Shown: positions 6,241 to 48,228 of the stretch, piece by piece
Layout of the letters: every line of letters starts with the position of its first letter
Numbering within the stretch: the first letter of the stretch is position 1
Source of the DNA: an uncultured Nitrospirales bacterium
GTDB lineage: Bacteria; UBA10199; JADGCS01
DNA length: 64,000 bases
Assembly (NCBI GenBank): GCA_964609965.1
Contig: CAZSTS010000011.1
Span: 5,099 to 69,098, forward strand
Direction of reading: 5' to 3'
Translations under genes and position numbers: made by a program
The notes under the pieces: generated by a model
Told to the model about the DNA's origin: nothing
The model's database searches: none
The model's input: the letters and a program-made list of their open reading frames with translations, nothing else

Positions 6241-9200
6241 CGAAGCCTTTGCTGCTCAAAGTATTCTTGTAAAGATTTAACATTCATCGAAGTTTTACGA
6301 AGCTCTGAGATTCCCATAACTGCTGCCTCTGCTGCAGCCAGCGTTGTAAAATAAGGCGTGTTCGTCATCAACGCTGTTCTTCTGAGCTCAATAGAATCAA
6401 CAGCAGAAAGCTTGCCTTCATGTGTATTGATCACCATGGCAATCTTGCTATTCATGAGAGGATCCAAGATATTGGGATCTCCCTCGTAATGTTTTTTTAC
6501 ATTAAAGGCATCAAGCCCGTGTCTTTGTAAATATCTTCCCGTTCCCCCTGTAGCAATAATCTTAAAACCATAATCAATGAGCCTAGCAGCAATGGAAACA
6601 ATTGCCTTTTTATCTTTATCTGTAACCGAAATAAAAGCGAGCCCTGTTAAGGGCAAAGGATTCTTTGCCGCGAGCTCAGCTTTAGCAAAACTCATCCCAA
6701 ATTTTGTGTCTATCCCCATAACTTCGCCTGTTGAACGCATTTCTGGACCAAGCAAAGTATCAACTCCTGGAAACTTATTGAAAGGAAAAACAGCTTCTTT
6801 TACACACACATGTTCTGTATCTATTTTTTCTACAAAGCCTATTTCTTTTAAGGTTTTTCCTACCATCAATTTTGCTGCTGCCTTTGCTAGAGGCTGCCCA
6901 ATGGCCTTAGAAACAAAAGGAACAGTACGTGATGCTCTGGGATTAACTTCTAAAACGTAGAGAGTATCATCTTGCAAAGCAAATTGCACATTCATGAGAC
7001 CAACAACTTTTAACTCGAGGGCCATGCGTCTTGTTTGTTCTACAATTTTTTCTATTGTTTTTGGTAAAAGTGATTTTGGCGGCAAACAACAAGCAGAATC
7101 ACCAGAGTGAATTCCAGCACACTGCACATGCTCCATAATCCCGCCAATTTTAACATCCTGACCATCACAAAGAGCATCCACATCAATCTCAACAGCATTT
7201 TCTAAAAAACGATCTACAAGAACAGGACGATCTTCCGAAACTTGAACAGCTTTATGCATATATTCAGACAAACTTTCTTGATCATAAACAATTTCCATGG
7301 CTCGACCACCCAAAACATAGGAGGGGCGTACAAGAACAGGGTAACCAATCCGCTTAGCAATAAACAAAGCTTCACTATAGCTTTTTGCTAATCCATTTTC
7401 TGGCTGTCTCAACTCGAGCTTATCGATGAATGCTGCAAATCGCTTACGATCTTCAACACGATCAATGCTGTCTGAAGATGTTCCTAATATTTTGGCACCC
7501 CAGTTCTCTAAGGGCACTGAAAGCTTTAAGGGCGTTTGCCCACCAAATTGTACAATGATACCTTCTGGTTTTTCTTCTCGAAGAATATGTACGACATCTT
7601 CTTTTGTAAGAGGCTCAAAATACAACCTATCTGACGTGTCATAATCTGTGCTCACTGTCTCTGGGTTACAATTAACCATAATCACTTCATAACCTTCTTC
7701 CTGAAGCGAATAACTAGCATGGCAGCAACAGTAATCAAACTCAATGCCTTGGCCAATACGATTAGGCCCACCACCCAGAATGACCACCTTCTTTTTGCTT
7801 GTAGGCTTAGCTTCATTCTCTTCTTCATAGGTGGAGTACATATAAGGAGTATAGGCTTCGAATTCTGCGGCACATGTATCAACACGTTTATAAACTGGAA
7901 GTATTTTTTTCTTTTCTCTAAAGCTTCTTATTTTTTTTGATTTTGTATTGAGAAGTTTTGCTAGCCTTTTATCAGAAAAACCCATTTTTTTGGCCGTGAT
8001 CAGCATATCTGCTGGAATTTTAGGCATGGCATTGCCTGGTTTTTTACAAGCATACTTTTTAAGCTGCTTTTCAAAATCAATAATCTGGCTGATTTGATGC
8101 AAAAACCATAAATCAATATTTGTGAGCTCATTTAATTTTTGAATTGTATAACCTTTTCTTAAAGCCTCGCCAACCCACCACAATCGGTCTGGCCCAGCTT
8201 TTGTAAGGTTCTTGTTGATTTCGTTTTTAAGGCCTTTTTTCTGTGAAATCAGGACCTCATCAAAACCATGCATGCCTATCTCTAAAGAGCGAATAGCTTT
8301 TTGCAGACTCTCTTTAAATGTTCGGCCAATACCCATGACCTCACCAACAGACTTCATTTGAGTGCCCAAAACTTTTTCGGCCATGGGAAATTTTTCGAAA
8401 GTAAACCTTGGGATTTTAGTAACAACATAATCAATAGAAGGCTCAAAACTAGCAGGCGTATCCTTTGTGATATCATTTTTAAGCTCATCTAATGTATAAC
8501 CAACAGAAAGCTTTGCTGCGATTTTTGCTATGGGAAAACCTGTAGCCTTACTAGCAAGGGCGGATGACCTGGAAACACGGGGGTTCATTTCGATCACCAT
8601 CACTTCACCGGTTTGGGGACTCACACCAAATTGAATATTAGAACCGCCTGTGTCTACGCCTATCTCTCTCATCACAGCAATGGAGGCATTACGCAGGTCT
8701 TGATACTCTTTGTCTGTTAATGTCTGTGCGGGAGCCACAGTAATAGAATCACCAGTATGAATTCCCATGGGATCTAGGTTTTCTATTGAACAAATAATAA
8801 CAACATTATCGTTTTTATCTCTCACCACTTCTAGTTCATATTCTTTCCAGCCAAGAAGAGATTGCTCAACAAGCACTTGTTTTTTTGGTGAAGCATCAAT
8901 CGCCCATTTAATATGTTCTTTATATTCTTCTAAATCATAAGAAACGTTTCCACCTGTGCCACCTAATGTAAAAGCAGGTCGCAAGATTGCTGGAAATCCA
9001 ATTTTTTTCACAGCATCAAGAGCCTCCTTCATATTGCCTACAATGGCAGATTTTGGCACTGACAAACCTATTTTTTCCATGGCGGTTCTGAACAGGTAAC
9101 GATCTTCTGCTTTTTTAATTGATTTTAAATTAGCGCCTATGAGCTCAACACCAAATTCCTGTAAAACACCCATCTCATGGAGAGCGATCGTGACATTAAG

Positions 9201-10704: not shown

Positions 10705-10863
10705 AAACTAATCTTTCAAGATTAATTTTGAAGTTGCAAAGCCAGCCTGACGCTCATGTGACTTGCAATAAAATGAATTTTCAATTGAAATGAAGAAGTG
10801 AAAACTACTACGAATTAGCGGCGTGCTGCCGCAACGAAAAGATTAATCTAGAAAGATTAGTTT
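10705..10863. mobile_element. MITE-like or long-hairpin element with ~25 bp terminal inverted repeats
   Basis: Left end AAACTAATCTTTCAAGATTAATTTT; reverse complement of right end AAACTAATCTTTCTAGATTAATCTT. No ORF inside and no clear target-site duplication. Confidence 0.55.
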
Positions 10864-13800
10864 CCGTAACCACAGGTAGAACTCCCATAAGGATCATTCC
10901 CATAATCAAACTTATTTGCATTATCATAGTAGTTCTTATAACGATCGCGATCAAAGTCGTTGATCATGAAATCAACACACGTCATGTATTTATAAACATC
11001 ATAATCAGGATTATCTAAATCCGCAAAACCAGGATCTTCTAAATTACTACAATCAGCCGCATCAACATAACCATTTGGCAACATGCCTAGATCTGTATAC
11101 ACATCAATAATAGGTGTACCATTTGGCATCACCCCATCATCACGATGAAAATCAAAGCACCCTTGGGTACTGCTTGCAATGCCTGGAATCAAACAACCAT
11201 GAAACGAAAAATAAAGTGGTTTTCCTTGTCCTGTGGCAGCATCAGCCTTGGCAAAGGATGGCGCTGTATTTCCTTTTCCATTAAAGACTCCAATACCAAC
11301 AAATAATAAGAGATTATTCTCATCAAAATTCACAGGCCAACCAGCAAACACAATTGATTTTGAATTAAAATCCTGATCCATAAACCGGTAATTACCTTTA
11401 CCATAACCACCATAATTGATTCCTGAATGCGCAAGTGAACTATAATCAATCAAATTACTAAACTCTTCATTCCACCCATCTTCGCGCCAAAACTTAGCAG
11501 TATCATATCTCTCACCATCCTTAAGATAAATCTGGTTTTTATCTAAGTGAGGTCTTGTTGTTACTGCAATACGCTGCTGCCAATCACCATTATACCATTC
11601 ATCTTCTGCCACTCTCTTTGTTGTAATGGTCACATTCATATCAGTGTATATAAGGTGACCAGGATGACTAAAAAAGATGGAGCGATCACCTGCACCTAAA
11701 ACAATAGCTTTAAAATGCGCATTATAGATTGTGATATCATACTTTGTTTCATGTGTTTCACCATCATCATCCACGTGGGGCTCATATGTGCCAAAGCCCT
11801 CCCAGGAATCATAGTCTGGATTTTCAGAATCAACATCATCTGGCACAACACCTTCATCTTCTAGGAGAAATACAAAATAAGAGCATTCATCCACAAACCC
11901 ATCTTGTCTCTTTGTATCTGACTTAGAGGCGATGGATTTGTAGCAATCTTTTACCTCATCAGGGTCATTGATAGTTTGAATTGTGCTAGGACCATAATTA
12001 TTTCCTGCACACTTTGTGTCATCCAAGAAAGTAATATACGATCCAAATTGAAAAGCCCCATAAACACCTTCATAAAAAGATTCGCTTTCATTGGGATCTT
12101 CTTCTGCTCGTTCAAACACATCTGAAACAGTTTCTACATCTGGTCGATACGCAAATGTGGCAATCCGTCCATAATACTCTACGTTGCAACTATCGAATTT
12201 TGTAAACTCATGATAGACAACCATCCACCTGGTCCCATCATCATCAATGTATTCTTCGCCTCCATTTGTTGGCATGCAAGCTGTATCAGAATCCAAAAGT
12301 CGTTCTTCACCTTCTGGTGTTGTGTATTCAATCGTCCCCACACCATCATCTGCGCATTCAATCCCTGTACCTGTGTGACTTCCTTTTTGAAATTCAAGGC
12401 GATAAGGATCTGTAGGCAAGGGTGAGCAGCCTTTAATATTAGTAGCCTGATGCAAGTATGAACGAATAGACGTAAGGTAATTAAGGTTATCTTTATCAAA
12501 CTGTAACTCAATGGGTTCTGCCAAGCGAGCCGTCCCTTGTTCGCGGTTTAGTTCGAGCGCTAGATGAAATCTAAATGGAGGAGGGTTATGGGCTGACTCA
12601 ATCAGGTCTGTCATAACCATGGTAATACGATCCATCACAAACGTTACACGTTGCGTGCCATCATCACCCAAAACACCTGTGTTGCATAAATTACTCTCAC
12701 CTGATTCCGAAGACATGGCCTGAAAGGGAACTGTGAATGTTCTTGGAGTCATACCTGTAAGCAGGGACGCATAGGCACTCTCTTTTTCGGGAAAGGTCGT
12801 TTCAACTACAAGCTCCCCAGCAAGCATCTGTCCAATTGAAGCCACGGAACCGTAGAACTCAACAGTAAAGCTTTGTGAAGAATCAGGCTCAATGCTAAAA
12901 GAATCACTTGATGGAGTCACTGTAAGAGACGCATCACTAGTGACAGACCAATTCACATTCATTGTATCTTCTTTATTATTATTATAAACCTTAAAAGTAG
13001 CTGAGGTAGGCGTTGAGGAATCTGTTGAAAACACGCAAAGGTTTTGATTACGGCCTTCGGCATATTCTCTTTCTAACTTTGTACCTCCATACAAAAGCTC
13101 AACAGCATAGCCTGAATCCTGTTCGCCAACTAAAGAAACCTTTCCTTGTGGGCCATTGCCACCTGTGTGTTGGAAATAGAACTGTCCAAAATCAAAACTC
13201 GCTTCAAAATCTCCATTGAGTTCTGCTGATGTAGAGGGCAAATACTGAATTGAAAAAGTTGCTTCTGCACCAGCCACGAGCTCTAAAGGAAAACTTAATT
13301 CTGTCTCTTCCCAAGTATACTCAAAAAAACCATTAATAGAACCGCCATAGAATTCTAATGTTTTTGATCCTGTCCCTGCATTTATAATCTTAATCTGAGC
13401 TGTTGAAGAATTTGTTGAAACCCAATCAAGGAAAATATCAACAGAACCATAATAGATTGCAGCACCATCAGATGTAAGATCAACTGATCGCCAGGCTTCC
13501 TCATCTGAAAAACGATAAGCCATTTCCAAAATCGGCTCTACACCACTGGTAGCAGCCACAAGAGGCAGGCGAATTATCCCGAGAGAGGTGTGAAGATTGA
13601 CTACAGCATTCATAGCTAAAGAATTGTATAGATATCCGTCATCAGCCTCAATATCCAGTGTTGGGCTGAACTCCATATCGAGTCTTAATATTTTTCCAGC
13701 TTCTAGGAGGATGTTTTGTACTTCTTGACCTGTGTGATACACGCTCACACTGTATCCACCAGCAGGATTATCAACAGGACCTGTGTAATCAATAAATGTA

Positions 13801-14633
13801 GGCTCTGAAAAAGTACTTGTGTTGTTTGGTTCCAGACCAAATGAGAAACTGCTATCTATTTCATCAGAGACCTGCCAAATAAAATCTTCGAATGAATTGT
13901 TGTCCATGGCTGCTGACAAAAGAACATCATCATTGTTATCAATGCTCACAGAGGTAATCTTAATATCTTCTCCGCCAGTGTTACAAATTTTAATTCCCTC
14001 TGTTCTTGTTTGTCCATACGCAACTTTATAAAAGTCTAGATAATCAACTTCGGGAGCATCATCATCTGAGCAAAAATAACCTGTTGGAATAATTTTAAAA
14101 TCACTAGGACCAGTGACAGAAGCCCTCAGAGGAAGACGAATATAGCCATCGATGTCTGCTGTTATGGAAACATAGCTTGTTTGTGTGCCAAAAACCCACG
14201 CATTGAACTGAACATAGAAAGTTTTCGTCTCACCATGACCAACTTCGATTTCACTATACCCACCGATATTTTGTTCGTTTTCGTCTAGGATCGAAAAACC
14301 AGTTGAAACAGAATATATTGTAAATTTAAAATACCGAGTTTCTCCTGAATTGTTTGAGATAGTAAAGGCCTCTTTGATTTCATCATCTTGTGAAATCTCT
14401 CCATTGAGATCATTAAAATCAATGTATTCAGGATCTGTTGTGATGCTTACACCATTATCTACAAACGTATTAACCACCATATCAGCAAGACTTGTGTCAG
14501 CCGAAGGAGTAAAATCTGGGGAAATATCGAAATCTGCTTCGACGTCAGCTGAATCCCCACCACAGGCAGTCGCTGCTAGAATTAAAAAAAGAACTAATAG
14601 ATGAGGAATGTGTTTTTTAAGCAATGTTTTCAT
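10857..14633 (-). CDS. Large acidic lipoprotein with several Ig-like (ASH/choice-of-anchor-D-like) domains and a Cys-rich C-terminal domain
   Basis: Lipobox AATAC; recurring I.N.G..(L/I) and F.P strand motifs; Asp/Glu-rich. The domain call is inference. Confidence 0.75.
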   Translation of the reverse strand: MKTLLKKHIPHLLVLFLILAATACGGDSADVEADFDISPDFTPSADTSLADMVVNTFVDNGVSITTDPEYIDFNDLNGEISQDDEIKEAFTISNNSGETRYFKFTIYSVSTGFSILDENEQNIGGYSEIEVGHGETKTFYVQFNAWVFGTQTSYVSITADIDGYIRLPLRASVTGPSDFKIIPTGYFCSDDDAPEVDYLDFYKVAYGQTRTEGIKICNTGGEDIKITSVSIDNNDDVLLSAAMDNNSFEDFIWQVSDEIDSSFSFGLEPNNTSTFSEPTFIDYTGPVDNPAGGYSVSVYHTGQEVQNILLEAGKILRLDMEFSPTLDIEADDGYLYNSLAMNAVVNLHTSLGIIRLPLVAATSGVEPILEMAYRFSDEEAWRSVDLTSDGAAIYYGSVDIFLDWVSTNSSTAQIKIINAGTGSKTLEFYGGSINGFFEYTWEETELSFPLELVAGAEATFSIQYLPSTSAELNGDFEASFDFGQFYFQHTGGNGPQGKVSLVGEQDSGYAVELLYGGTKLEREYAEGRNQNLCVFSTDSSTPTSATFKVYNNNKEDTMNVNWSVTSDASLTVTPSSDSFSIEPDSSQSFTVEFYGSVASIGQMLAGELVVETTFPEKESAYASLLTGMTPRTFTVPFQAMSSESGESNLCNTGVLGDDGTQRVTFVMDRITMVMTDLIESAHNPPPFRFHLALELNREQGTARLAEPIELQFDKDNLNYLTSIRSYLHQATNIKGCSPLPTDPYRLEFQKGSHTGTGIECADDGVGTIEYTTPEGEERLLDSDTACMPTNGGEEYIDDDGTRWMVVYHEFTKFDSCNVEYYGRIATFAYRPDVETVSDVFERAEEDPNESESFYEGVYGAFQFGSYITFLDDTKCAGNNYGPSTIQTINDPDEVKDCYKSIASKSDTKRQDGFVDECSYFVFLLEDEGVVPDDVDSENPDYDSWEGFGTYEPHVDDDGETHETKYDITIYNAHFKAIVLGAGDRSIFFSHPGHLIYTDMNVTITTKRVAEDEWYNGDWQQRIAVTTRPHLDKNQIYLKDGERYDTAKFWREDGWNEEFSNLIDYSSLAHSGINYGGYGKGNYRFMDQDFNSKSIVFAGWPVNFDENNLLLFVGIGVFNGKGNTAPSFAKADAATGQGKPLYFSFHGCLIPGIASSTQGCFDFHRDDGVMPNGTPIIDVYTDLGMLPNGYVDAADCSNLEDPGFADLDNPDYDVYKYMTCVDFMINDFDRDRYKNYYDNANKFDYGNDPYGSSTCGYGN

Positions 14634-14700
14634 TTTTGTTTTATGTCTTATGTTTTATGATTTGAAATGGCATTAAACATAAAACATTTAACGTAGTACG
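14634..14700. repeat. Direct then inverted heptamer array (hairpin-forming) between lipoprotein genes
   Basis: TTTTATG TCTTATG TTTTATG ... CATTAAA CATAAAA CATTTAA. Confidence 0.65.
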
Positions 14701-14707
14701 TTATACA

Positions 14708-15955
14708 TTAATAAATCTCCTGTGTAATCTCCCCTTCCAAATGAAGAAAATAATAGGCTTCGTTATCAACTAGGGCCTGATAGGCCTCGTTAGACATTTT
14801 TGTATCATCTTCTCCTGCAAATGTAGCAATGCCAACCAAGGTGATTGTACCATGCCTGATATCTTTACCTATTAAACGATCATCAATAATATTAAACATG
14901 GGCACACCAAAATCATCTGATACATCTGGAATTTCTTCAATATAAGGATGTGACACTTCGCCTGTTGTTAATATTTCTAAATTTAAAAAAGCATTAAAAA
15001 GCCCATCAGAATCCTGTATGAGTGAATTTGAATTGTTGATATATGAAGAAATACTAAACAATAAATTATTAATTTCAAGTCGACCCGGCGTCTCTACACG
15101 ATCTATTGTTCCATAGGCCTCGTTAGGAGCACCAAGAATCAAATCAGCACCAAGAAAAAACGTGTCTGTAATGGCGGTTGGCACATCAAAGCGCGTACAT
15201 TCATCAAAACTGAGTAAAGTTACCGTTCCGTCTTCGTCTATTTTTAAAATAAGATAAACAGGGCTATACCATTCATCTTCTGGAATGATATCAAGATCAA
15301 TATGAGTGCTAATATCAAAAGAATAACTAGCAAAAGCTCCTGTATTCTTAAGATAGGCATTCAGCTGAGTTACTTTTAAATAATAATACTCTCCTTCTGG
15401 CAAGGCAGGCAATGTGCGTTCCGTAGGATTATCGTATTCATCATAGTAAACTCTTTCATTGGAATCACAAAGCAAGGCATCTGGGGCATTGTCATTCACA
15501 GTCGTCACGAGAGAAACTGTATTGGAGAGACTCTCTTCTAATGTGAGATAATAAATAATAAATATCGTCGTGTATTCTGTGACTGAACATGAGGTAGGGC
15601 TAAACTGAAGATTAACGTTGATAGAAGCCCCTGGAACCACGCTAATAGAGACGGCATCTCCTGTTTGATAAAGCATGTTTCCTGCTTCATCTAATATATT
15701 ATAAACTGAATAAGCCCCACAATCATTGTCCGCAAATGCCATGTTATAAATTTCATAGTTTTCTTCTTCTGAATTATTAGTAAATGTAATTGTTCTGTAT
15801 GACGTTGTATTCAAATCACCACTTATCTGCATCTCAGTTGGAGAAGCAGAAATGCTCTGATCACCTTCAGAGTTAACAGAAGGACCGTAAAGAGAGGAGC
15901 AGTTTATCATGAACAGTGTTATGAGGATTGTTATGAATAGTTTCTTATTATTCAT
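14708..15955 (-). CDS. Acidic lipoprotein with one Ig-like domain and a C-terminal domain resembling that of the 1258-aa neighbour
   Basis: Lipobox FMINC; ITFTNNS...FSPT Ig-like motifs; LTTGEV/ITTKRV and LVGIATFAG/FVGIGVFNG similarities to the neighbour. Confidence 0.75.
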   Translation of the reverse strand: MNNKKLFITILITLFMINCSSLYGPSVNSEGDQSISASPTEMQISGDLNTTSYRTITFTNNSEEENYEIYNMAFADNDCGAYSVYNILDEAGNMLYQTGDAVSISVVPGASINVNLQFSPTSCSVTEYTTIFIIYYLTLEESLSNTVSLVTTVNDNAPDALLCDSNERVYYDEYDNPTERTLPALPEGEYYYLKVTQLNAYLKNTGAFASYSFDISTHIDLDIIPEDEWYSPVYLILKIDEDGTVTLLSFDECTRFDVPTAITDTFFLGADLILGAPNEAYGTIDRVETPGRLEINNLLFSISSYINNSNSLIQDSDGLFNAFLNLEILTTGEVSHPYIEEIPDVSDDFGVPMFNIIDDRLIGKDIRHGTITLVGIATFAGEDDTKMSNEAYQALVDNEAYYFLHLEGEITQEIY

Positions 15956-15962
15956 TTTAATT

Positions 15963-16000
15963 TCTGATAGCTGTCAGCAGTCAGCTGTCAGCCGTCAGCT
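15963..16000. repeat. Heptamer array (GCTGTCA-like)
   Basis: GCTGTCA GCAGTCA GCTGTCA GCCGTCA GC. Confidence 0.75.
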
Positions 16001-16002
16001 TA

Positions 16003-19000
16003 TTATTTAACCCAACTCTCCAACTCAATAATGATATCCGAAGATACATGAATGTACCCTTCATCATTATCAAATTCTATTGTTGGGTTTAGAATCACAT
16101 CCTTTATTCCAAAATCACAGAGAGCGTCACGAATAGGATCTTCTTCTCTTTCTAAATTTCCATCATCATCTCTTACATAAGGCGTGGGATACAGCATCGT
16201 ACAGGGATCCATAGGAAAATACTCAGTGCTCGCTACCAAAGTCATTTGTGGTGCTTCATTTTCATCATCCGCAACACCCTCTTCTTCCTCTTCCTCAGCT
16301 TGGCTTTGTCCATAATTGATAATATCTGGATTAAGAACAGGCTCTATCGTCATAGATTCTGGAGTAAAGCCCATGGGGGACTCCCCAGCATAATAAGGAA
16401 TATCATCACCACAAGAAGCATTCTCTGCTGCATCTACCTTTAATTCAAATTCAAACTCATCAAGTGTAGCAGCGCTTATATTGCCAGCAGCATAGTTTTC
16501 ACTCCCTTTAATTTTAATCACAATAGTAGGATTGGCCAGACTTGGATCAATAATAGGATCTCCATCATCGTTTTCTTCGATGTCTTCGTAAATGTCTTTG
16601 CCCATCTTATCGAACAAGGCTTTGACAACACCGTCTAACACATCTGTCACAACATTCACGTCATCATAAGTCGCCCCACCTTTGCCCGAAGGAACGCTGG
16701 CATGAATGTTCTGTTCTGCATAACCAGGTATATAGAGATGAATTTCGCCAGACTCTTTGTGATAAACAACCCTGAGCTTGATCGTCCCGTCTAATCTAAG
16801 ACGAACGACTTCTGATTGATACTTTGGATCTGTATAAATATTGGAAACAGTTTCTCCGTTTTCTGTGTGAGACTTAAGTTCTTTAATACCAAGCTGAAGG
16901 TCTGTTACACCTATTTGGATTTCGGAAGCATTATCTAAACCATCAACAGGATTAAGTGATAATGTAACAGGATAACCTGGGTCTAAAATCAAATCTACGT
17001 GTAAGGAAGATTCATTAAACTGAGATTGAATTGTGGCAAACAAGAGCGATGGGGGAAGGTCAGAAGGAATGAGACCTGCAATATCACAAATATCAAAGCG
17101 CCCTAAAACGACCTTATCAATCCCTACACTCCAGTTATTATTTTTTTCGATATCTTCTATTTCAAAGGTTTCTAGAAGAGACATTGGACCTTTTCTGAAA
17201 ATAAGATAAGCTGCAGCATTCACGATCTCTTCAATATTGAGAGATACCCCTAAAAAGGCCTCTCCTGCAGGATTACCTGAAGTGAGAGGGTATTCAATTA
17301 AACCTTCATTGCTAGAACCACGCCTTAAATGGCCGTTTCTATGGGCATGAGTGTATGAAACTTGCTGTACGGATTCAGCTTCATCCAGCCCTAGATGGAA
17401 TGTCTCTCTAAAACTTGCAAATGTGAAAACAGGAACCCCATCAACACCAACGCTTAGAGGAAGTCTTAATGTGATACCCCCATCAAAGACATTGAGATCA
17501 GCGTTTTCAACATTTGCACCAAAGTTAAATTCTTCCCAGTCAAAATCAGTTGAAAAAGCATTGCCTTCCCAAACCCATGCTGGATAATCATATTGAGACG
17601 AAATCATGGGATTGACCATCTCTTTATCCATGCAAGCAATCATCTTTTGAAAGGTCTCCATAACCCCTTGCCAGATAATTCCCAAGAAAGAAGCGTTTGT
17701 ACCATTGATGGTGAGATCACTGTAAATTGCCTGACCTTGAACTGAGTTTCGATCGAGAACTACTGGAAAAGTTTTTGCTGTTTCCTCACTACAACCAAAA
17801 GGAACAAAATACCCTGGATGTTTGGACTGAAAATAAGCTTTACAATTTTGAAAAGGCTCAATCTGAATTGATTTTTCTTCCATCTCTGAACTATCAAAAA
17901 GTGATGAGAGATTATTATTTGTGATTATTTCTTGTCCGTAAATTTTGATTTTACTGCCATCAAGAATAACTTTATTTGTCCACGTCCCGTTAATCTCTTC
18001 TTTTGTGACACGAATCACGTCTTTGAGTTTAAGTCTGATTTTTCCTACAGACCAAATAAGAGGGATTGTATCATCATTAATGGAGTACTCAAATCCTAAC
18101 ATCTCTTGCTGACCTAATAGACCTTTTTCAACAAGATTGTAGGCAATGAGGCTTCCCCAAAAAGCAGGCACAGAGGCAGATGAGACATCAGCGTCACAGC
18201 CCTTTTCAAGGTATTCATCTTCAAGATCTGGGTCATCTGGAACTAAACAAACATCAGCATCTACATAACCCTTTTCATTATAGCTATCTTCTTTTTCTTT
18301 CAGGTCTAAGCTTTGAACAATCCACTTTCCAGAAACATAGTCATTGAAATCATAAGAATCCGCATAAAGAGGCCAGTCATCGTTATCTGTATAAGTCTCA
18401 GGATCCTTTCCAAAGGCCTCAAAAAGATATTGTTTGTCCCCCACAGGCACAAAGGCTGTTGTGATCACACCGGTGCTGTTTTCTGTGCCCGCACAGGCAT
18501 CGAGAGCCACGTTGAATTCTTCTTGAGGATCACCTTCTCTTTCAAAATAACAATGCTCAGGATCTTGAGAACAATCGCCACTCGTGTTTTCTTTGAGCCA
18601 TTGACGATAGCGCCACAAAGCCCAATACTTTGTAATCATGATATTGCTATGAAGGCCTTGATGAATAAATTTTTCTTGCCACTCAGGAGAGAGGTCCTCG
18701 AAAGCATCATAGCGCTCACCACCATTATCTTCCATGTATTGTCTTTGAAAATCTGCTTCGAGATCAATATTATCATTGTCGTCTTTGGTCCAATTCATCC
18801 AACCATTGGCAACATCACCAAAACTAATGTTCTCATTAAGATAGTGTTCAACGACCTTAAGAATATTTCTGCCTTGTACTGAGTCACGGCTAATCACACC
18901 TTCTGAGAGATTGAGCATCACAGGGGCCCGATCAACACAAGCATCGTCTGTTAACGCACAGGAACCCGCTACCAAACCAAGCTGGCCTGCTGTAAGCGTT

Positions 19001-20913
19001 GCTGATCGTATAAGAGATTCACCTGGCGTAAAAGTTCTTGAATGTGGGCTTTCTTCTCCCATTTGGAAAGTCGTTACCTCGATTGTACGATGGCCTTTTG
19101 TGCTTTCACCCTGAAGCTGCAAAGCGTTTGTGTATAAATTGAGATGAGCGTGGTGGTCTTCTGAGGGTACTTGCAACGTAAAATCAAAACTTGCTTCAGG
19201 CACATCACAAACAATGCGATCAGTTGACGTCTCTGTGCCATCATCGTTTTCAATGGTTGTGGTTTGCGTATAGCAGTTTCCATGAAATGCGCTCTCACCT
19301 TCCATATAGGCCTCAGCGGCCTCTTCAGTAACAGTAGAATAACTGTCTGTATATTCTGGATAGATATATATAGGATAGTTGTCATCGCTGGTGGAAACAT
19401 TAAGCCACATCTTAATACTCGAAGCAGGACAATCTGGATCGTCTTCTTTATCAGGCTGACAATAACTTCCTGTTTCACCACTCTTTGGCGCAGGAACACT
19501 AGCTACATAATCCGCATCAATGGGCGCAAAATATTTTACTGTACCAGAAACCTTGATAGTTGTTTTTCCTGGTGCAAAAAGTTCATTTTCCCTTGGCTGA
19601 GTAATCGTTATAATGGGTTTATCATTATCAATGATAAGAGTCATCTCTGCACTAGTTTCACCAAGAACATTGCTAGCCTTAGCCGAAATAGTATTAATAC
19701 CATCTTGAAGTTCAGTGATGTGACTTAGAGAAATACACAACGTATTTGTATCATCAAAACCCTTGCCATCATCGTATTCAAGCTCAGAGTTTGTGCACCA
19801 TGACCACCCTTCTTCATACCAAATCTCAGTATCAGGGTGAAGCTCTTCGCCATTGAATTGAATATCGTACAAAGTCACTGGCATCTCTGCTTCACTAGAA
19901 CCAGAGGCATAAAGATTAGGCACGCGAATACCTACAGTAAGATAAGAAACATCTGTAGGTGCCGAGGTATCAACCTCGTTTTCTGATGAATCACGAACCT
20001 CAATCTCAAGGCTCGGAACATTTGCCACAACAACGTTTACTGTCTTTGTGAGCGTGAGATCTTTGTTTGTGTTAATGGTCAAAGAGATCGCATACACACC
20101 TTCAACTTGAGGCACGCCAACTTGCTTTGAAAAGTATCCATTAGAATCAAACGTGGTTTTGTATTTTACTCCTGCTGAATTAATATAGATATTACTTGAA
20201 AGACCCTCTTCAAAAATCGATTGCAGTTCTAAATTAACTGAGCCAGTCACTGTTACAAGGTAATCACCTTCGGCATCATCAACACCTTCATGATGGCCTG
20301 TCCGACTATCTATAATCAGGCCTTCTGTTGGTGCTGTAATTGTAAACAACGTTGCTAAAGTTTGACCTTGGACTTTGATGATGTAGGCATAGGCTGACGA
20401 AGAACTTCCAGAATTGAGAAGAATTTTGACCTGCCCTGTGTGAGACCCAATGGCTGTTCGCATGTAACAAATCGTGATGTCACCAGAACCCATAACGCGT
20501 TCATCTGAATAATCACCATTCGCATTATAAATCTGAAATTCATACTCTCCATCCACTTCACTTGTATTGTCTTTATCAATTTCTGCTTCATATGTGACAC
20601 TGCTCGGAAGTCCAATGGAGAGACATTCGATAGAATCCACATCACTTAGACCGTAATCGATAAGTTGATTAGAGAGCATGATAGAAGAAATATCTGTGCT
20701 ATCAATACAGTTACCTTCCTCATCTTTTTCGCAAATATTTGTAGACCCATCAGCTCCAGGATAATACGCCCCGCCATCACCAATGTTTATGGAGCTGTCT
20801 GCCGTTTCATCAAGATAAATATCTGGATTATCAGAGGAACAATTTACCAATGCGATGATACAAAAAAGAAAAACTATGTTGAGGATAAATATTTTTGTTA
20901 GCTTACTTTTCAT
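16003..20913 (-). CDS. Giant (1636 aa) acidic lipoprotein with N-terminal bacterial Ig-like domains
   Basis: Lipobox ALVNC; ITAP/ITQP...V.G.V and G.NTI.A.A.N.LG Big-type motifs; many Cys pairs; poly-Glu stretch near the C-terminus. Confidence 0.78.
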   Translation of the reverse strand: MKSKLTKIFILNIVFLFCIIALVNCSSDNPDIYLDETADSSINIGDGGAYYPGADGSTNICEKDEEGNCIDSTDISSIMLSNQLIDYGLSDVDSIECLSIGLPSSVTYEAEIDKDNTSEVDGEYEFQIYNANGDYSDERVMGSGDITICYMRTAIGSHTGQVKILLNSGSSSSAYAYIIKVQGQTLATLFTITAPTEGLIIDSRTGHHEGVDDAEGDYLVTVTGSVNLELQSIFEEGLSSNIYINSAGVKYKTTFDSNGYFSKQVGVPQVEGVYAISLTINTNKDLTLTKTVNVVVANVPSLEIEVRDSSENEVDTSAPTDVSYLTVGIRVPNLYASGSSEAEMPVTLYDIQFNGEELHPDTEIWYEEGWSWCTNSELEYDDGKGFDDTNTLCISLSHITELQDGINTISAKASNVLGETSAEMTLIIDNDKPIITITQPRENELFAPGKTTIKVSGTVKYFAPIDADYVASVPAPKSGETGSYCQPDKEDDPDCPASSIKMWLNVSTSDDNYPIYIYPEYTDSYSTVTEEAAEAYMEGESAFHGNCYTQTTTIENDDGTETSTDRIVCDVPEASFDFTLQVPSEDHHAHLNLYTNALQLQGESTKGHRTIEVTTFQMGEESPHSRTFTPGESLIRSATLTAGQLGLVAGSCALTDDACVDRAPVMLNLSEGVISRDSVQGRNILKVVEHYLNENISFGDVANGWMNWTKDDNDNIDLEADFQRQYMEDNGGERYDAFEDLSPEWQEKFIHQGLHSNIMITKYWALWRYRQWLKENTSGDCSQDPEHCYFEREGDPQEEFNVALDACAGTENSTGVITTAFVPVGDKQYLFEAFGKDPETYTDNDDWPLYADSYDFNDYVSGKWIVQSLDLKEKEDSYNEKGYVDADVCLVPDDPDLEDEYLEKGCDADVSSASVPAFWGSLIAYNLVEKGLLGQQEMLGFEYSINDDTIPLIWSVGKIRLKLKDVIRVTKEEINGTWTNKVILDGSKIKIYGQEIITNNNLSSLFDSSEMEEKSIQIEPFQNCKAYFQSKHPGYFVPFGCSEETAKTFPVVLDRNSVQGQAIYSDLTINGTNASFLGIIWQGVMETFQKMIACMDKEMVNPMISSQYDYPAWVWEGNAFSTDFDWEEFNFGANVENADLNVFDGGITLRLPLSVGVDGVPVFTFASFRETFHLGLDEAESVQQVSYTHAHRNGHLRRGSSNEGLIEYPLTSGNPAGEAFLGVSLNIEEIVNAAAYLIFRKGPMSLLETFEIEDIEKNNNWSVGIDKVVLGRFDICDIAGLIPSDLPPSLLFATIQSQFNESSLHVDLILDPGYPVTLSLNPVDGLDNASEIQIGVTDLQLGIKELKSHTENGETVSNIYTDPKYQSEVVRLRLDGTIKLRVVYHKESGEIHLYIPGYAEQNIHASVPSGKGGATYDDVNVVTDVLDGVVKALFDKMGKDIYEDIEENDDGDPIIDPSLANPTIVIKIKGSENYAAGNISAATLDEFEFELKVDAAENASCGDDIPYYAGESPMGFTPESMTIEPVLNPDIINYGQSQAEEEEEEGVADDENEAPQMTLVASTEYFPMDPCTMLYPTPYVRDDDGNLEREEDPIRDALCDFGIKDVILNPTIEFDNDEGYIHVSSDIIIELESWVK

Positions 20914-20919
20914 TATTCA

Positions 20920-22644
20920 TTACCATCGTCCACTAACTCCAACGCCTACACCAAGCCCCTGTGGGCCAGGCTCAATCCCTGGCATTCCAGTTTGCAGACC
21001 AGGCATATCAGGACCAAAACTAGGAATTCCACTTGCCGCTCTTGGCATTCCAAGCTCAAGATTTAGATCTGAAATCTTCCATCGATTTGGACCTCCTGTT
21101 GCTCTAGGATCAAAATTTTCATTAATACCATCAAGTATTCTTCCCACTTTTGTGTTGCTTATCAACGCCCCCAAAAGAGCTCCTAAAAGATACGCGCCCC
21201 AGTTAAGAGCGTAATCACCCCAGACTTCATCGCTCATCTCTGAAGCCACTGCTGTACTTACCGTGTTAGCTGTCCAACCCACAACAGGAGCGGCCACAAG
21301 ACCAACTCTTTCTGCAGTGTCTAAGGACTCCCAATCTTTTATTTGATCAATAAGCCAATAACCACCTCTCATGGCCGGGATAATGTTTACTACAGGCAGC
21401 AAACCGCTGAACATGCCCGCTACTTCAGAATTTCCATCATCAAGATTTACAGAATCTAATAAACCCATGGCTAGAGGAGCAAAAATACCCACACTGAAGA
21501 AAGCGTTGTGAGCTGTATAAAAAGCAATCATCTCTGGATCATTTGTAGAAATAGCCTCTAGTGCTCCCAAACCAAAACCCCCAACTGACATTGCTATATT
21601 TTCTCCTGTGAGCGGACTTCCTTCACCACGAGGATTAGGGTTAACATTAGCTGCAGCCGCCATACCAAATTGAGCTGGAATCATGAGAGCTCCAACAGCA
21701 AGACCTAACCAAGGCTTACCATCGATCTCAAAGGCCTGAACACCTACGAGGTTTCCATTAATCATAGCAGCAAAAGACCAAGCCTGACCTTCTAATTCAA
21801 AAGCAGTGATAGCCCTTGATAGTTCTGATGTTCCTGGTGTGAGTCTTTCTGCAAGATCTTTTTCTGCTTCACCTTCTTCTTCATCGCAAATGCCTAGATC
21901 TTCACAATCAGAATCACCCTCTGTATCTTCTGCTCTTTCTTGAAGCTCTTCACACACCTCTGGATCAACCCCTTCTTCACAAGGGATCACGTTATTCATG
22001 TTATTTGATGTGACTTGCATAGAAGCAGGCAAGGCTGAAAGGCCTGCAAAGGCTAAAGCACCATCTGTAAAACGAATAATCAGCACACCAGGATCACTGC
22101 CATCGTACGTAAGCACAGGATTAGTTGAAACACCCCTTACAATAGAAGCATAACCTAAAGGTCCGGTATATTTCCCCGCAAGATCTGTTGTGAGCTCTCC
22201 CATTTCCATGGCGTAAATTGCTGGGGGATTAAGTGTGCGCATAATCAAACTCAAATCAGCATGACCATACAAGAGTGATTCAGAAACACTCATACCAACA
22301 AGCTCGCCAGGAGTTTCAGCCCATTGACGCGCTAGGTTTGTTGGTACAACATCAAAAGGAATTTTAAAAACTGGCCGATTCATGCCATCATCATCAAGCT
22401 CATATTCTCTAGCATCGACTGAAATCGCGTAGACAAGAATACCAGCATCAGCTGCAACAGAAAAACCAATACCCAGTTTTTCAAAAACAGTAGCAACTTC
22501 TTCTTTAGTTGGGCCTGTGTTTGTGCCAGAAGTCGGGGATGTAGAAGATGCGCGTCGTTCCAAAGCCACATCTAATGAAGTCAACTCAGATGGAGATCTT
22601 TCTGAAACTGGTGCCTGACCGGTTGTTGGGATTAAATCGCTCAT
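20920..22644 (-). CDS. Orphan protein with an S/T/P-rich N-terminus and several Gly-rich hydrophobic segments; no signal peptide
   Basis: Long ORF 6 nt upstream of the giant lipoprotein gene. Start moved to ATG 22644 because the track's TTG start overlaps the promoter element. Confidence 0.75.
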   Translation of the reverse strand: MSDLIPTTGQAPVSERSPSELTSLDVALERRASSTSPTSGTNTGPTKEEVATVFEKLGIGFSVAADAGILVYAISVDAREYELDDDGMNRPVFKIPFDVVPTNLARQWAETPGELVGMSVSESLLYGHADLSLIMRTLNPPAIYAMEMGELTTDLAGKYTGPLGYASIVRGVSTNPVLTYDGSDPGVLIIRFTDGALAFAGLSALPASMQVTSNNMNNVIPCEEGVDPEVCEELQERAEDTEGDSDCEDLGICDEEEGEAEKDLAERLTPGTSELSRAITAFELEGQAWSFAAMINGNLVGVQAFEIDGKPWLGLAVGALMIPAQFGMAAAANVNPNPRGEGSPLTGENIAMSVGGFGLGALEAISTNDPEMIAFYTAHNAFFSVGIFAPLAMGLLDSVNLDDGNSEVAGMFSGLLPVVNIIPAMRGGYWLIDQIKDWESLDTAERVGLVAAPVVGWTANTVSTAVASEMSDEVWGDYALNWGAYLLGALLGALISNTKVGRILDGINENFDPRATGGPNRWKISDLNLELGMPRAASGIPSFGPDMPGLQTGMPGIEPGPQGLGVGVGVSGRW

Positions 22645-22669
22645 AAATACCCTAATTACCTCTGCACTA

Positions 22670-22696
22670 TTATCGGGCAAAGCCCTAATAAGTTGC
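22670..22696 (-). promoter_or_regulatory. Putative sigma28/FliA-WhiG-like promoter of the lipoprotein operon
   Basis: Minus strand GCAACTTA-N11-CCCGATAA, ending 25 nt upstream of ATG 22644. Confidence 0.65.
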
Positions 22697-22798
22697 TTAA
22701 ATCATAGACTTTATGGCGGGGTGCGGCAGACACTCTGCGGGCACTTATTTGCTGTAATATCAAGAACTTGTAGCTATTGAGATTTAGCTTAGTTTTAA

Positions 22799-22843
22799 TA
22801 TAGGTCCTATGGGGCCTATAGGACTTATAAGACCTATATTGGG
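22799..22843. repeat. Quasi-palindromic 9-mer array (TATAGGTCC/GGACCTATA)
   Basis: TATAGGTCC TATGGGGCC TATAGGACT TATAAGACC TATATTGGG; near-copy at 25447-25494. Confidence 0.8.
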
Positions 22844-22935
22844 CTCCGAAGAACCTCATAGCAACCCTACCTTGCACGAACTATAATAATACTCCCCATT
22901 CTCTCCCATATTGAGAAAACCGTTAGATCTTTGAC

Positions 22936-22944
22936 TGTGGATAA
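22936..22944 (-). promoter_or_regulatory. Single consensus DnaA box
   Basis: TGTGGATAA (TTATCCACA on the minus strand) in a divergent intergenic region; could be a chance match. Confidence 0.3.
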
Positions 22945-23007
22945 CCATATAAATTCGCGCACTTGCCTAATATCACCCACTTAGAGAGGCCATTTTCCAA
23001 TCAGCTT

Positions 23008-25446: not shown

Positions 25447-25494
25447 TATAGGTCTTATAGGTCCTATAAGACTTATAGGACCTATATTAGGACC
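25447..25494. repeat. Quasi-palindromic 9-mer array supplying the valS stop codon
   Basis: TATAGGTCT TATAGGTCC TATAAGACT TATAGGACC TATATTAGG; the valS TAA is at 25487-25489. Confidence 0.8.
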
Positions 25495-46460: not shown

Positions 46461-48228
46461 AAACAGGGGTTTTCTTATCTCCCTTTTGTTGTTTTTGCTT
46501 TTATTTACCTGTTATCAGCCATTAGCTAATGCAAAACAAAATCCACCAGACACTTCTAAACAAACACAGGCGCTCGTACAACCCAGCCAATCAACAACAC
46601 TTCAAAACACCCCCTCACAAATATCTTCCAGTGTTCCCCTAGTAACAGCCGATGAAATTTCTCTAGAAGATCTTGATAAATCATTTTCTGATCTCGCCCT
46701 TGATGAACTGACAGGAACAAAAACATCAGGAACAAGAAACCCCTTTGCTCCAGGCATTGTCGAAGAACAATCTGATCCCTCATCATTGATCATACAAGGC
46801 ATAGCTGTCGGCCCAAAAAAATCTTTTGTTCTCATATCAGGACAAATTTTTACAGTAGGTGATCGTATTGGTTATTACACTATTACCGAAATCAAACCAG
46901 GAAAGATGATATTAACCCAACTCGAAGATAAATACATTGTCAAGATGGAGGGATACTCACAATCTATAAAAAAGAGACACCTAGGAAAATATTTTATAAA
47001 ATTTAATAATGCTGACATCAAAAAAACATTAGAGCTTTTAGCTGCTGCAGGCGACATCAATATAATTGTTCCAGAAGCAACAACAGGAAAAGTTTCGGTT
47101 TCCTTTTACAATACAGATATCATGGACTCTTTGGCTTCAATACTTCGCGTCAACAGCCTTGAGTATGCTATCGAAAACGACATTTTGAGAGTTGGTCCAG
47201 CCACACAATTTACCGATGATTCAGATCTAAAAGCAATGACCATTCCACTCAATTACGCAACAGCTTCTGAAATGCAAAAGCCCATCCAAACTCTTTTATC
47301 AAAACGTGGCGCCACTATTGCAGACGACAGAACCAATACAGTCATTGTCAAAGACCATGCCAATGTTCTTGATAATATCAGAAGATTTTTGGGCAGCATC
47401 GATAAGCAAGATCCTCAGGTATCTATTGAGGCAAAGGTCATCGACGCTTCAAAAAACTTCTCGAGAGCCTTAGGCATTCAATGGGGATTTTCATCTGGAC
47501 CCAACAATGTTGTCCTGCGTGGAAATCAAGATGCTGGCGCTATTACATCAGGAGCCACGCCTGGTACAATGGTAAACCTAGGCCCTACACTAACTCCCAC
47601 AAGCGGATTTAACGTGCTAGTAGGCCGCTTACCAGGAAATACAAATCTCGAAATGCAATTAGGTGCCGCTGAATCCACAGGTCAAATCCGTATTATTTCA
47701 AAACCAAATGTAACAACGATTAATAATAAGACTGCCAAAATACGTAGTGGACTAAAAATTTATGTTAAAATCGAAGGAGGCACTGACGAAGGGCCCACTT
47801 TACAAGAAATTGAAACCGGCATTGAACTAAAAGTAACACCACAAATCACACTTAATCGTATGATCAAAATGGATCTCGAAGCCATACAAAGTGAAGCTGA
47901 CTTTTCTAGAACTGTAGATGGCATTCCCTCGATTATTGACAACACAGCTAAAACAACTGTGCTCGTTCCAGACGGCGAAACAGCCGTCATTGGTGGTCTT
48001 TTAAAGGTAAACACTAACCGAGAAAAACGAGGCGTGCCAGGCATTAGCAAGGTTCCTGTCTTAGGTTGGCTGTTTAAAAGCACCAGGCGTTCAAAAGAAA
48101 GCAAAGAGCTCATGATTTTTATCACTCCAAAAATTCTCGATGCTAAACACTTTAAAATTGAAGGAAACGAAAGCCATGACCTAACAGTGAATGACGCTAT
48201 TACCGAGATCACTGAAGTCACCCAATAA
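46447..48228 (+). CDS. pilQ: Secretin (PilQ-like) with an N-terminal PilP/MshK-like domain
   Basis: Signal peptide; RNPF...IQGI...ISG....GD.IG domain; N0/N3 domains; QVSIEAKVI, GI.L.VTP, GVPGISKVPVLGWLFK, ELMIFITP. Start ATG 46447 chosen from the upstream GGAGA. Confidence 0.9.
   Translation: MHYIKNRGFLISLLLFLLLFTCYQPLANAKQNPPDTSKQTQALVQPSQSTTLQNTPSQISSSVPLVTADEISLEDLDKSFSDLALDELTGTKTSGTRNPFAPGIVEEQSDPSSLIIQGIAVGPKKSFVLISGQIFTVGDRIGYYTITEIKPGKMILTQLEDKYIVKMEGYSQSIKKRHLGKYFIKFNNADIKKTLELLAAAGDINIIVPEATTGKVSVSFYNTDIMDSLASILRVNSLEYAIENDILRVGPATQFTDDSDLKAMTIPLNYATASEMQKPIQTLLSKRGATIADDRTNTVIVKDHANVLDNIRRFLGSIDKQDPQVSIEAKVIDASKNFSRALGIQWGFSSGPNNVVLRGNQDAGAITSGATPGTMVNLGPTLTPTSGFNVLVGRLPGNTNLEMQLGAAESTGQIRIISKPNVTTINNKTAKIRSGLKIYVKIEGGTDEGPTLQEIETGIELKVTPQITLNRMIKMDLEAIQSEADFSRTVDGIPSIIDNTAKTTVLVPDGETAVIGGLLKVNTNREKRGVPGISKVPVLGWLFKSTRRSKESKELMIFITPKILDAKHFKIEGNESHDLTVNDAITEITEVTQ

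Follow-up and report, generated by a model that had tools for sequence, protein, structure and literature searches.

A conserved lipoprotein operon of one uncultured bacterial order as a candidate cell-envelope assembly

Several described systems resemble, in part, the locus considered here. The SusE/F proteins of Bacteroidota are surface glycan-binding lipoproteins with immunoglobulin-like (Ig) stalks, and loci for nutrient capture tend to be patchy in their distribution. Surface-layer (S-layer) proteins are typically acidic, fast-diverging and Cys-poor, and indeed typically Cys-free. The consensus of promoters read by sigma-28 (FliA/WhiG) is TAAA-N15-GCCGATAA, and the C-terminal beta-signal of outer-membrane proteins ends in an aromatic residue. 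We set against these systems a four-gene operon, A-B-C-D, found in a stretch of 64,000 nucleotides (nt) from an uncultured Nitrospirales bacterium (GTDB lineage Bacteria; UBA10199; JADGCS01; assembly GCA_964609965.1, contig CAZSTS010000011.1, positions 5,099 to 69,098), referred to below in its whole length as the window. We found that the operon is kept in every good genome of one uncultured order and nowhere else on record, and it is probably a lineage-defining cell-envelope structure. Our best explanation, which we hold at a probability of roughly 45%, is an order-specific envelope assembly of the B, C, and D proteins, encoded by an old, vertically inherited operon.

The four genes lie on the minus strand and span positions 10857 to 22644 of the window, with intergenic gaps of 6, 47, and 74 nt. 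The list of open reading frames (ORFs) reproduces the layout of the original prediction, which was made from the DNA letters of the window and described four co-directional genes for proteins of 574, 1636, 415, and 1258 amino acids. Gene A (20920–22644) is counted from an ATG at 22644; an alternative TTG start at 22680 (20920–22680, 586 amino acids) falls within the promoter. Gene B (16003–20913) encodes a predicted lipoprotein with the lipobox ...LVNC-SS (Cys25), an isoelectric point (pI) of 4.14, and 24 Cys in its mature part. The product of gene C (14708–15955), also a predicted lipoprotein, has the lipobox ...MINC-SS (Cys19), an ASH-type Ig domain at residues ∼34 to 131, and then a C-terminal domain of ∼270 residues. 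Gene D (10857–14633) divides into two parts. Its N-terminal half (12714–14633) encodes the lipobox ...ATAC-GG (Cys24), a Gly/Ser/Asp linker, and about four ASH/Cep192_D4-type Ig domains (residues ∼60–640); the remainder, which includes the stop codon (10857–12713, residues ∼641–1258), encodes a family-specific globular region, here called the head.

A profile of the C-terminal domain of D matched 11 of the 12 genomes of the order, including all 10 that are at least 90% complete; the single genome without a match is 78% complete. The same profile matched 0 of 81 genomes in the rest of the phylum. Among 1,835,955,588 representative proteins it had 31 matches, all of them orthologues or fragments: 22 are proteins of 1,056 to 1,356 amino acids with a C-terminal match, and nine are fragments. 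With B as the query, 11 of 41 sampled relatives matched, corresponding to 11 of the 12 in the same order and 0 of the 29 in other orders. The C profile recovered 10 of the 12 genomes of the order along with weak relatives in five genomes of other orders, three of which were compared by hhalign and gave probabilities of 94 to 98%. A word-based search of 5.8 billion proteins returned 26 matches for D, 14 for B, and 22 for C, every named one of which is called "hypothetical"; the public records of the order's members carry the labels "Deltaproteobacteria bacterium" or just "bacterium."

In those other orders, some of the C-like lipoproteins stand beside other giant proteins of 1212 to 1705 amino acids (L027:2731–7597, L029:8371–18305, L028:9339–18999). 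These giants match no Pfam family and have no detectable relation to B or D. Such loci may be parallel "dark" envelope clusters.

The arrangement of the genes is conserved along with their presence. B-C-D are contiguous and co-directional in seven of the nine relatives' loci that were fetched (G002, G003, G005, G006, G008, G010, and G011), and in the remaining two (G007 and G009) the contig stops inside B. A metagenome contig with 40% identity (L024) also has the full set, so the synteny proposed at the outset as a check is borne out. Stop and start codons overlap or lie 1 to 15 nt apart between B and C in G003, G005, G006, G011, and L024, and between C and D in these same five loci and in G008 and G010, which argues for coupled translation. 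In four relatives belonging to two families (G005, G007, G010, and G011), a DUF4143/AAA_14 ATPase gene is located directly upstream of B (L015:4936–6111, L011:245–1423, and the corresponding ORFs of L014 and L016); G010 has it placed between an A-like gene and B. This gene was presumably inserted once, in the ancestor of the four.

Because the genes are coupled and their distribution is identical, we favor a single B-C-D assembly. Should B, C, and D instead be unrelated lipoproteins that share an operon with no joint function, the C-like lipoproteins of other orders, which adjoin other, unrelated giants, would be readily understood, as would an inserted ATPase gene that can part the upstream gene from B; physical interaction, moreover, is at most suggested by gene coupling. 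We consider independent neighbors unlikely. Order and orientation are retained in all seven complete loci and in L024 at identities of only 23 to 35%, stop and start codons overlap, and B and D agree in where they occur, each being present in 11 of 12 genomes of the order and in none outside it.

The surroundings of the operon differ between relatives. The gene carA directly adjoins D in no relative but the genus-mate G002; L019, a relative with 70% identity, has carA and carB ∼7.4 kilobases (kb) downstream of D, and the flanks of G006 and G008 have a trmD region in common. Identity to G002 is 82.5% for carB, 71.0% for carA, 68.5% for D, 64.3% for the DTW protein, 59.7% for B, 56.2% for C, 50.0% for the divergent 168-amino-acid ORF upstream of the operon, and 27.7% for A. 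The differing flanks, together with the order-wide presence, indicate that the cassette is old and vertically inherited and not an insertion. The operon genes are single-copy in their own genome, and the four proteins take up ∼0.4% of its 2.8 Mb. The operon was originally held to be inserted among housekeeping genes. This view has to be given up: its G+C content (0.36–0.42) is similar to that of the remainder of the window, no mobility genes flank it, the carA/carB neighborhood is limited to close relatives, and the cassette is found across the order.

The N termini of B, C, and D each consist of a basic and then hydrophobic leader ending in a lipobox Cys, as judged by reading the sequences and aligning orthologues. 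The lipobox Cys is invariant in B (C25, 8/8 orthologues) and C (C19, 7/7) and is kept in at least 90% of 18 D orthologues (C24), in agreement with the three lipoboxes first noticed. B, C, and D thus show the features of signal peptidase II substrates and are predicted to be lipoproteins. LolA and BamA are both encoded in the genome, which implies a cell with two membranes that is able to sort its lipoproteins outward; by analogy, B, C, and D would be located in the outer membrane or at the surface. Mature B has 24 Cys, mature C four, and mature D 16; A has four. Every count is even and many positions are invariant, consistent with disulfides formed outside the cytoplasm and with the many Cys pairs of the earlier description. 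All four proteins have a pI of 4.05 to 4.15, versus 7.2 to 9.5 for the products of carA, carB, and valS. The strong Asp/Glu bias noted before is therefore real as acidity but does not hold as a trait of the operon, since 73 of 100 lipoprotein-like ORFs genome-wide have a pI below 4.5 (median 4.05), versus 155 of 1637 other ORFs (lipoprotein-like ORFs were picked by a crude regular expression among ORFs of at least 200 amino acids). In this lipoprotein-like set, B and D rank second and third in size.

Family searches divided these proteins into recognizable and unrecognizable parts. Three ASH/Cep192_D4-type Ig families were considered (Pfam PF22073, PF22544, and PF15780). All 18 D orthologues match PF22073 (Cep192_D4; E values up to 1 were accepted, and the best is 4.8e-15) and 15 of the 18 match PF22544; the window's own D scores 25.5 bits to PF22073, below the cut-off of 35.5. 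Internal hhalign comparisons link the approximately four Ig domains of D to one another, and the sole match of D in a search of PDB profiles is human CEP192 (E value 5e-4). The N terminus of C aligns with the first Ig domain of D at an hhalign probability of 90%, and the ESM Atlas pointed in the same direction, its clusters for C being limited to the ASH and BACON Ig kinds, with none reaching 0.9. For B and its seven orthologues there was no consistent Pfam match and no Ig domain. The Ig-like strands once ascribed to all three lipoproteins are thus borne out, at the level of the family, for D and for the N terminus of C, and not for B.

Outside the Ig domains, the C-terminal 620 to 660 residues of D, the C-terminal 270 residues of C, and the whole of A match no Pfam, NCBIfam, PHROGs, or PADLOC family. 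PDB sequence profiles gave nothing meaningful for C, B, or the D head (A was not among the queries), and the ESM Atlas held no usable match for the D head. No internal paralogy was detected between B, the D head, and the C-terminal domain of C. The motifs CxEQ, HExxH, GxSxG, and RTX-like repeats are absent from all four proteins, and as in the first reading of the sequence, no catalytic family or motif was recognized (Pfam, NCBIfam, PDB profiles). The accompanying claim of an undescribed system also stands, as no described family was found in Pfam, NCBIfam, PHROGs, PADLOC, or PDB profiles beyond the Cep192 Ig match; a literature search, judged from its search results alone, turned up no account of a comparable operon. 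Three new protein families would be represented by B, the C-terminal domain of C, and the D head, with ∼2,500 residues that have no annotated fold.

In the alignment of the D head, Cys, His, Glu, Asp, and Arg positions are invariant, for instance in HQxTN, FYHEF, GxYEP, APSFA, FHGC, and DRDR. A pattern scan with a closer set of D sequences found four loci in genome contigs and five in metagenome contigs. Together, the invariant positions of His, Glu, Asp, Arg, and Tyr might make up an active or metal site, and the build of D as a whole, with a lipid anchor, a linker, about four Ig domains, and a large conserved head, would suit a surface protein that captures or degrades a polymer. The head would then be a new hydrolase, lyase, or binding module that an Ig stalk keeps at a distance from the membrane, with B and C as lipoproteins that assist in binding, akin to the glycan-binding lipoproteins of Bacteroidota without the SusC/D pair. 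Conservation, too, is highest in D among the four proteins, at 68.5% identity to G002 versus 59.7% for B and 56.2% for C. This polymer-capture function is nevertheless improbable in our estimation, given that no catalytic family or motif (HExxH, GxSxG) was found, that no transporter, regulator, or sugar- or peptide-utilization gene is linked to the operon in the loci read, and that presence throughout one order with absence elsewhere is unusual for nutrient-capture loci.

The operon promoter lies at 22670 to 22697 on the minus strand and consists of AGCAAC (22697–22692), a 15-nt spacer, and CCGATAA (22676–22670), 25 nt upstream of the ATG of A. This block is conserved in the genus-mate G002. 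GCAAC-N15-CCGATAA, with the same spacing, precedes the A-like gene by no more than 110 nt in G002, G006, G008, and G010, hence in four of seven relatives and in five of eight lineages when the window is included; directly upstream of B, the motif was found in one of six loci (G006). The −10 element reads CCCGATAA in the window and GCCGATAA in G006, G008, and G010. Across the genome, AGCAA-N10-20-CCGATAA occurs 20 times, versus 2 to 7 times in five shuffles. CCGATAAT alone is not enriched in the genome, and [CG]CCGATAA has 134 genome copies where base composition predicts ∼146; enrichment is confined to the composite motif. The sigma-28-like promoter of the original prediction is therefore upheld in its −10 element, CCGATAA, which is of the sigma-28 type, and not in its upstream element, which is AGCAAC rather than TAAA. 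Conserved across families of the order, (A/C)GCAAC-N15-CCGATAA provides a regulon marker.

In this genome, the best FliA/WhiG-like sigma factor (TIGR02479) is a 282-amino-acid protein of the sigma-70 family that scores 133.2 bits, below the cut-off of 189.6. Its gene adjoins a FliG_M-like gene and lies ∼8 kb from FliP (contig C6, ∼70–79 kb, outside the window). This protein is likely the sigma factor for the promoter class, and the promoter would tie the operon to an alternative sigma encoded near flagellar-type export genes in a genome where flagellin is undetected. Among the genes that follow other copies of the promoter are those for a Ser/Thr kinase, for DUF4423, HDOD, and HEAT-repeat proteins, for an SLT transglycosylase and an FGE-like enzyme, and for six proteins that match no family. 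A further copy of AGCAAC-N15-CCGATAA stands 9 nt ahead of a gene for a 1322-amino-acid lipoprotein with multihaem cytochrome and MtrC/MtrF-like domains (C5:64156–68121, outside the window).

Two FHIPEP (FlhA/SctV) genes are present, isolated among unrelated genes (C22:22146–24134 and C8:10226–12073, both outside the window), and FliP is found in 93 of 93 genomes of the phylum; flagellin (PF00669) and rod domains were not found in the genome. The organism thus has a flagellar-type export gate and no recognizable filament. Being phylum-wide, FliP indicates that the gate does not co-vary with B-C-D.

These observations bear on whether the operon serves type-III-type export, with A as a signal-less substrate of the flagellar-type gate, controlled by the same sigma-28-like factor, and B-C-D as an order-specific periplasmic or outer-membrane scaffold around the gate or beyond it, a role comparable to that of lineage-specific flagellar disk and ring lipoproteins. 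The sigma-28-type −10 element, the FliA-like sigma gene (133 bits) with its FliG_M-like and FliP neighbors, the two FHIPEP genes and universal FliP, and the SLT lytic transglycosylase gene behind another promoter copy would suit such a role, as would the signal-less, acidic, Ala/Gly-rich, and Cys-poor character of the A-like proteins. The scaffold is very unlikely all the same: a gate of the whole phylum and a cassette of one order show no co-distribution, flagellin and rod domains were not found, A matches no flagellin or translocator family, the operon is unlinked to the gate genes, and the other genes of the promoter class are a mixed group (kinase, multihaem cytochrome lipoprotein, HEAT protein, FGE-like enzyme). 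To a new envelope machine, in which A-like proteins would leave through the flagellar-type gate and B-C-D would receive, anchor, or display them as a nonflagellar surface appendage made with flagellar export components, we likewise assign little probability.

The A protein itself has a pI of 4.09, 22% Ala+Gly, four Cys, and no signal peptide, and it ends in ...GLGVGVGVSGRW (...VGVSGRW). It is recognizable by sequence only within the genus, at 27.7% identity to the G002 orthologue. A-like genes are nonetheless found upstream of B in G003, G006, G008, G009, G010, and L024. Their products have 350 to 990 amino acids, a pI of 4.1 to 5.1, and 19 to 24% Ala+Gly and are nearly Cys-free; a signal peptide is absent from all eight A-like proteins read. 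Their C termini are mostly strand-like with a final Arg-Phe or Arg-Trp (...VSGRW, ...IAGEF, ...VGIRF, ...VSFRF, ...LSFRF, and ...TFRWGKNK). Among 2110 genome ORFs of at least 150 amino acids, nine end in R[FW] and five, gene A included, in hydrophobic-x-hydrophobic-R-[FW]; at least three of the others in this last group have a signal peptide. BLASTP among the A-like proteins found only the window–G002 and G008–G009 pairs, hhalign across families gave a probability of 0.2%, and of the leave-family-out hidden Markov models (HMMs) built from the C-terminal 130 residues, two designs failed and a third gave one borderline match (E value 0.009). The window's A contains four 19-residue stretches with a mean Kyte-Doolittle value of at least 1.5 and the G002 orthologue contains none, so that the hydrophobic protein of the original prediction applies to the window copy and not to its orthologue. 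Taken together, B-C-D is, as far as sequence comparison reaches, the conserved core, and A is kept by position, promoter, and composition, without demonstrable sequence homology. A may be described as a putative fast-evolving, acidic, Cys-poor, signal-less partner.

Two further roles for A were considered. A type I secretion substrate was rejected: no repeat family was found in A, and the best genome matches to the secretion components are 24.8 bits for TIGR01843 (cut-off 208.65) and 110.6 bits for TIGR01846 (cut-off 725.55), the latter in the ATPase domain only. As a candidate outer-membrane beta-barrel, A has the beta-signal-like ending, but none of the eight A-like proteins has a signal peptide.

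The composition of the A-like proteins also recalls a surface coat, in which A would be a fast-diverging, S-layer-like coat protein anchored by the conserved lipoproteins B, C, and D. The A-like proteins are acidic, nearly Cys-free, 350 to 990 amino acids long, and diverged beyond recognition between families, and the lipoprotein genes downstream of them are conserved. Such a coat is very unlikely: no S-layer or SLH-type domain was found, A has no evident export route (it lacks a signal peptide, and HlyD and HlyB are below cut-off), its Gly-rich hydrophobic stretches are atypical of coat proteins, and B and D are Cys-rich.

We return to the envelope assembly as the preferred explanation. One alternative-sigma promoter, AGCAAC-N15-CCGATAA with its sigma-28-type −10 element, would drive A-B-C-D. 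B, C, and D would be exported by Sec, lipid-modified at the conserved Cys, and would form disulfides outside the cytoplasm; most likely they would then be transferred to the outer membrane by Lol. There they would probably associate into a single hetero-oligomeric assembly of the envelope or cell surface, in which the ASH-type Ig domains of D and C could act as stalks or docking modules. Activity would be expected in the family-specific globular parts (the C-terminal domain of D, most of B, and the C-terminal domain of C), most likely as the binding or processing of a macromolecule that is external or belongs to the envelope. The multi-subunit cell-surface apparatus of the original prediction is accordingly a candidate, and attachment, lipid capture, and protein delivery are hypothetical tasks for it. 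A prediction of the complex between C (residues 30–415) and the D head (614 residues) scored 0.00 in two runs and is uninformative either way.

Several points weigh against this explanation. In G003, G009, and L024, no copy of the promoter was detected ahead of the A-like gene, nor was an AGCAAC-type promoter found before B in the three ATPase-carrying relatives scanned (G005, G010, and G011). With an ATPase gene before B and no promoter there, A and B-C-D are not always one transcription unit. The C gene of G002 has an in-frame TAA at a conserved Glu-Tyr position (L013, ∼9030–9040), which may be an assembly error or mark a real pseudogene. Complex formation is suggested by gene coupling as the single line of evidence, and placement in the outer membrane or at the surface is borrowed from the sorting rules of Escherichia coli, which may be invalid in this lineage. 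Acidity is generic to this organism's lipoproteins and not specific to the operon. The sequencing runs listed for this stretch are eight DNA runs from two studies, six of them possibly the source sample, and include no RNA run. Lastly, B, the D head, and the C-terminal domain of C may be remotely related to a known system in ways that comparison of sequences would miss.

At its downstream end, the operon is followed by carA and carB. A possible weak terminator hairpin, GCGGC-AGCAC-GCCGC (10818–10832, minus strand), was seen by folding 25 nt past the stop codon of D; a poor U-tract follows it and a consensus terminator scan missed it, which leaves its assignment tentative. That scan found 10 sites, versus 9.8 in shuffles, and zero between the operon genes. 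Upstream of the operon lie the divergent 168-amino-acid ORF, a nuclease lipoprotein gene, the DTW protein gene, valS, and ileS. Between A and the divergent ORF is an 18-nt block, GGTTATCCACAGTCAAAG (22929–22946, minus strand), of which 17 of 18 bases are the same in G002. The block includes a perfect TTATCCACA, which we take to be the DnaA-box consensus; as a raw count over both strands, the genome contains 49 copies of this 9-mer. A 40-nt palindromic element, TATAGGTC...GACCTATA, occurs at 22799 to 22838 and at 25447 to 25486, both intergenic in the window. It has at least three further genome copies (C1, C28, and C35), is missing at the matching place in G002, and looks like a small repeat of the repetitive extragenic palindromic or miniature inverted-repeat transposable element kind. 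A secretin-domain gene (PF00263, 153 bits, ORF of ∼605 amino acids) is located at 47665 to 48138 (plus strand), ∼25 kb from the operon.

Comparison with described systems placed the operon outside each of them. S-layers and gliding complexes had been named as the matches that would make the operon a known system; neither was found in Pfam or NCBIfam for A to D. There is no S-layer or SLH domain, and the mature parts of B and D have 24 and 16 Cys. None of the four proteins matches a component family of the gliding machineries of Bacteroidota (Gld/Spr) or Myxococcus (Glt/Agl). The likeness of B to bacterial alpha-2-macroglobulins, which are lipoproteins of ∼1,650 amino acids, stops at size and lipid anchor: B and its seven orthologues gave no match to an A2M or MG domain of Pfam, and the thioester motif CxEQ occurs in none of the four proteins. 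An anti-phage defense or phage-derived module was likewise rejected, with zero PADLOC and zero PHROGs families among the four proteins.

Other likenesses are partial. The promoter shares with sigma-28 promoters its −10 element and the fixed 15-nt spacer to an upstream hexamer; it differs in that this upstream element is (A/C)GCAAC, not TAAA, and in that the genes behind the promoter class are not flagellar. The endings ...VGVSGRW, ...GIAGEF, ...SVGIRF, and ...GVSFRF of the A-like proteins resemble the beta-signal of outer-membrane proteins, but these proteins have no signal peptide and their families are not linked by leave-family-out HMMs, and the likeness serves as a lead only. Ig domains of the ASH/Cep192_D4/HYDIN-VesB type, PapD-like beta-sandwiches that NCBIfam calls "choice-of-anchor D," are the same kind as those in the N-terminal half of D and at the N terminus of C, with the window's own copies below curated cut-offs. 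As generic extracellular spacer or interaction modules, they make up less than one-fifth of B, C, and D taken together (3,309 residues) and are silent on function.

The SusE/F-type lipoproteins and those of the operon are alike in layout, with a lipidated Cys followed by a flexible linker, Ig-like domains in tandem, and a distal globular domain, and in both cases several lipoproteins are encoded side by side. They belong to another phylum, and the operon, compared with them here from sequence, has no sequence relation to them, no SusC/D-type transporter, and no linked regulator. Because no known system's defining feature was found in the operon, besides generic lipoprotein and Ig features, we regard it, by exclusion, as a candidate for a categorically new system, one for which a structural relation to something known is possible.

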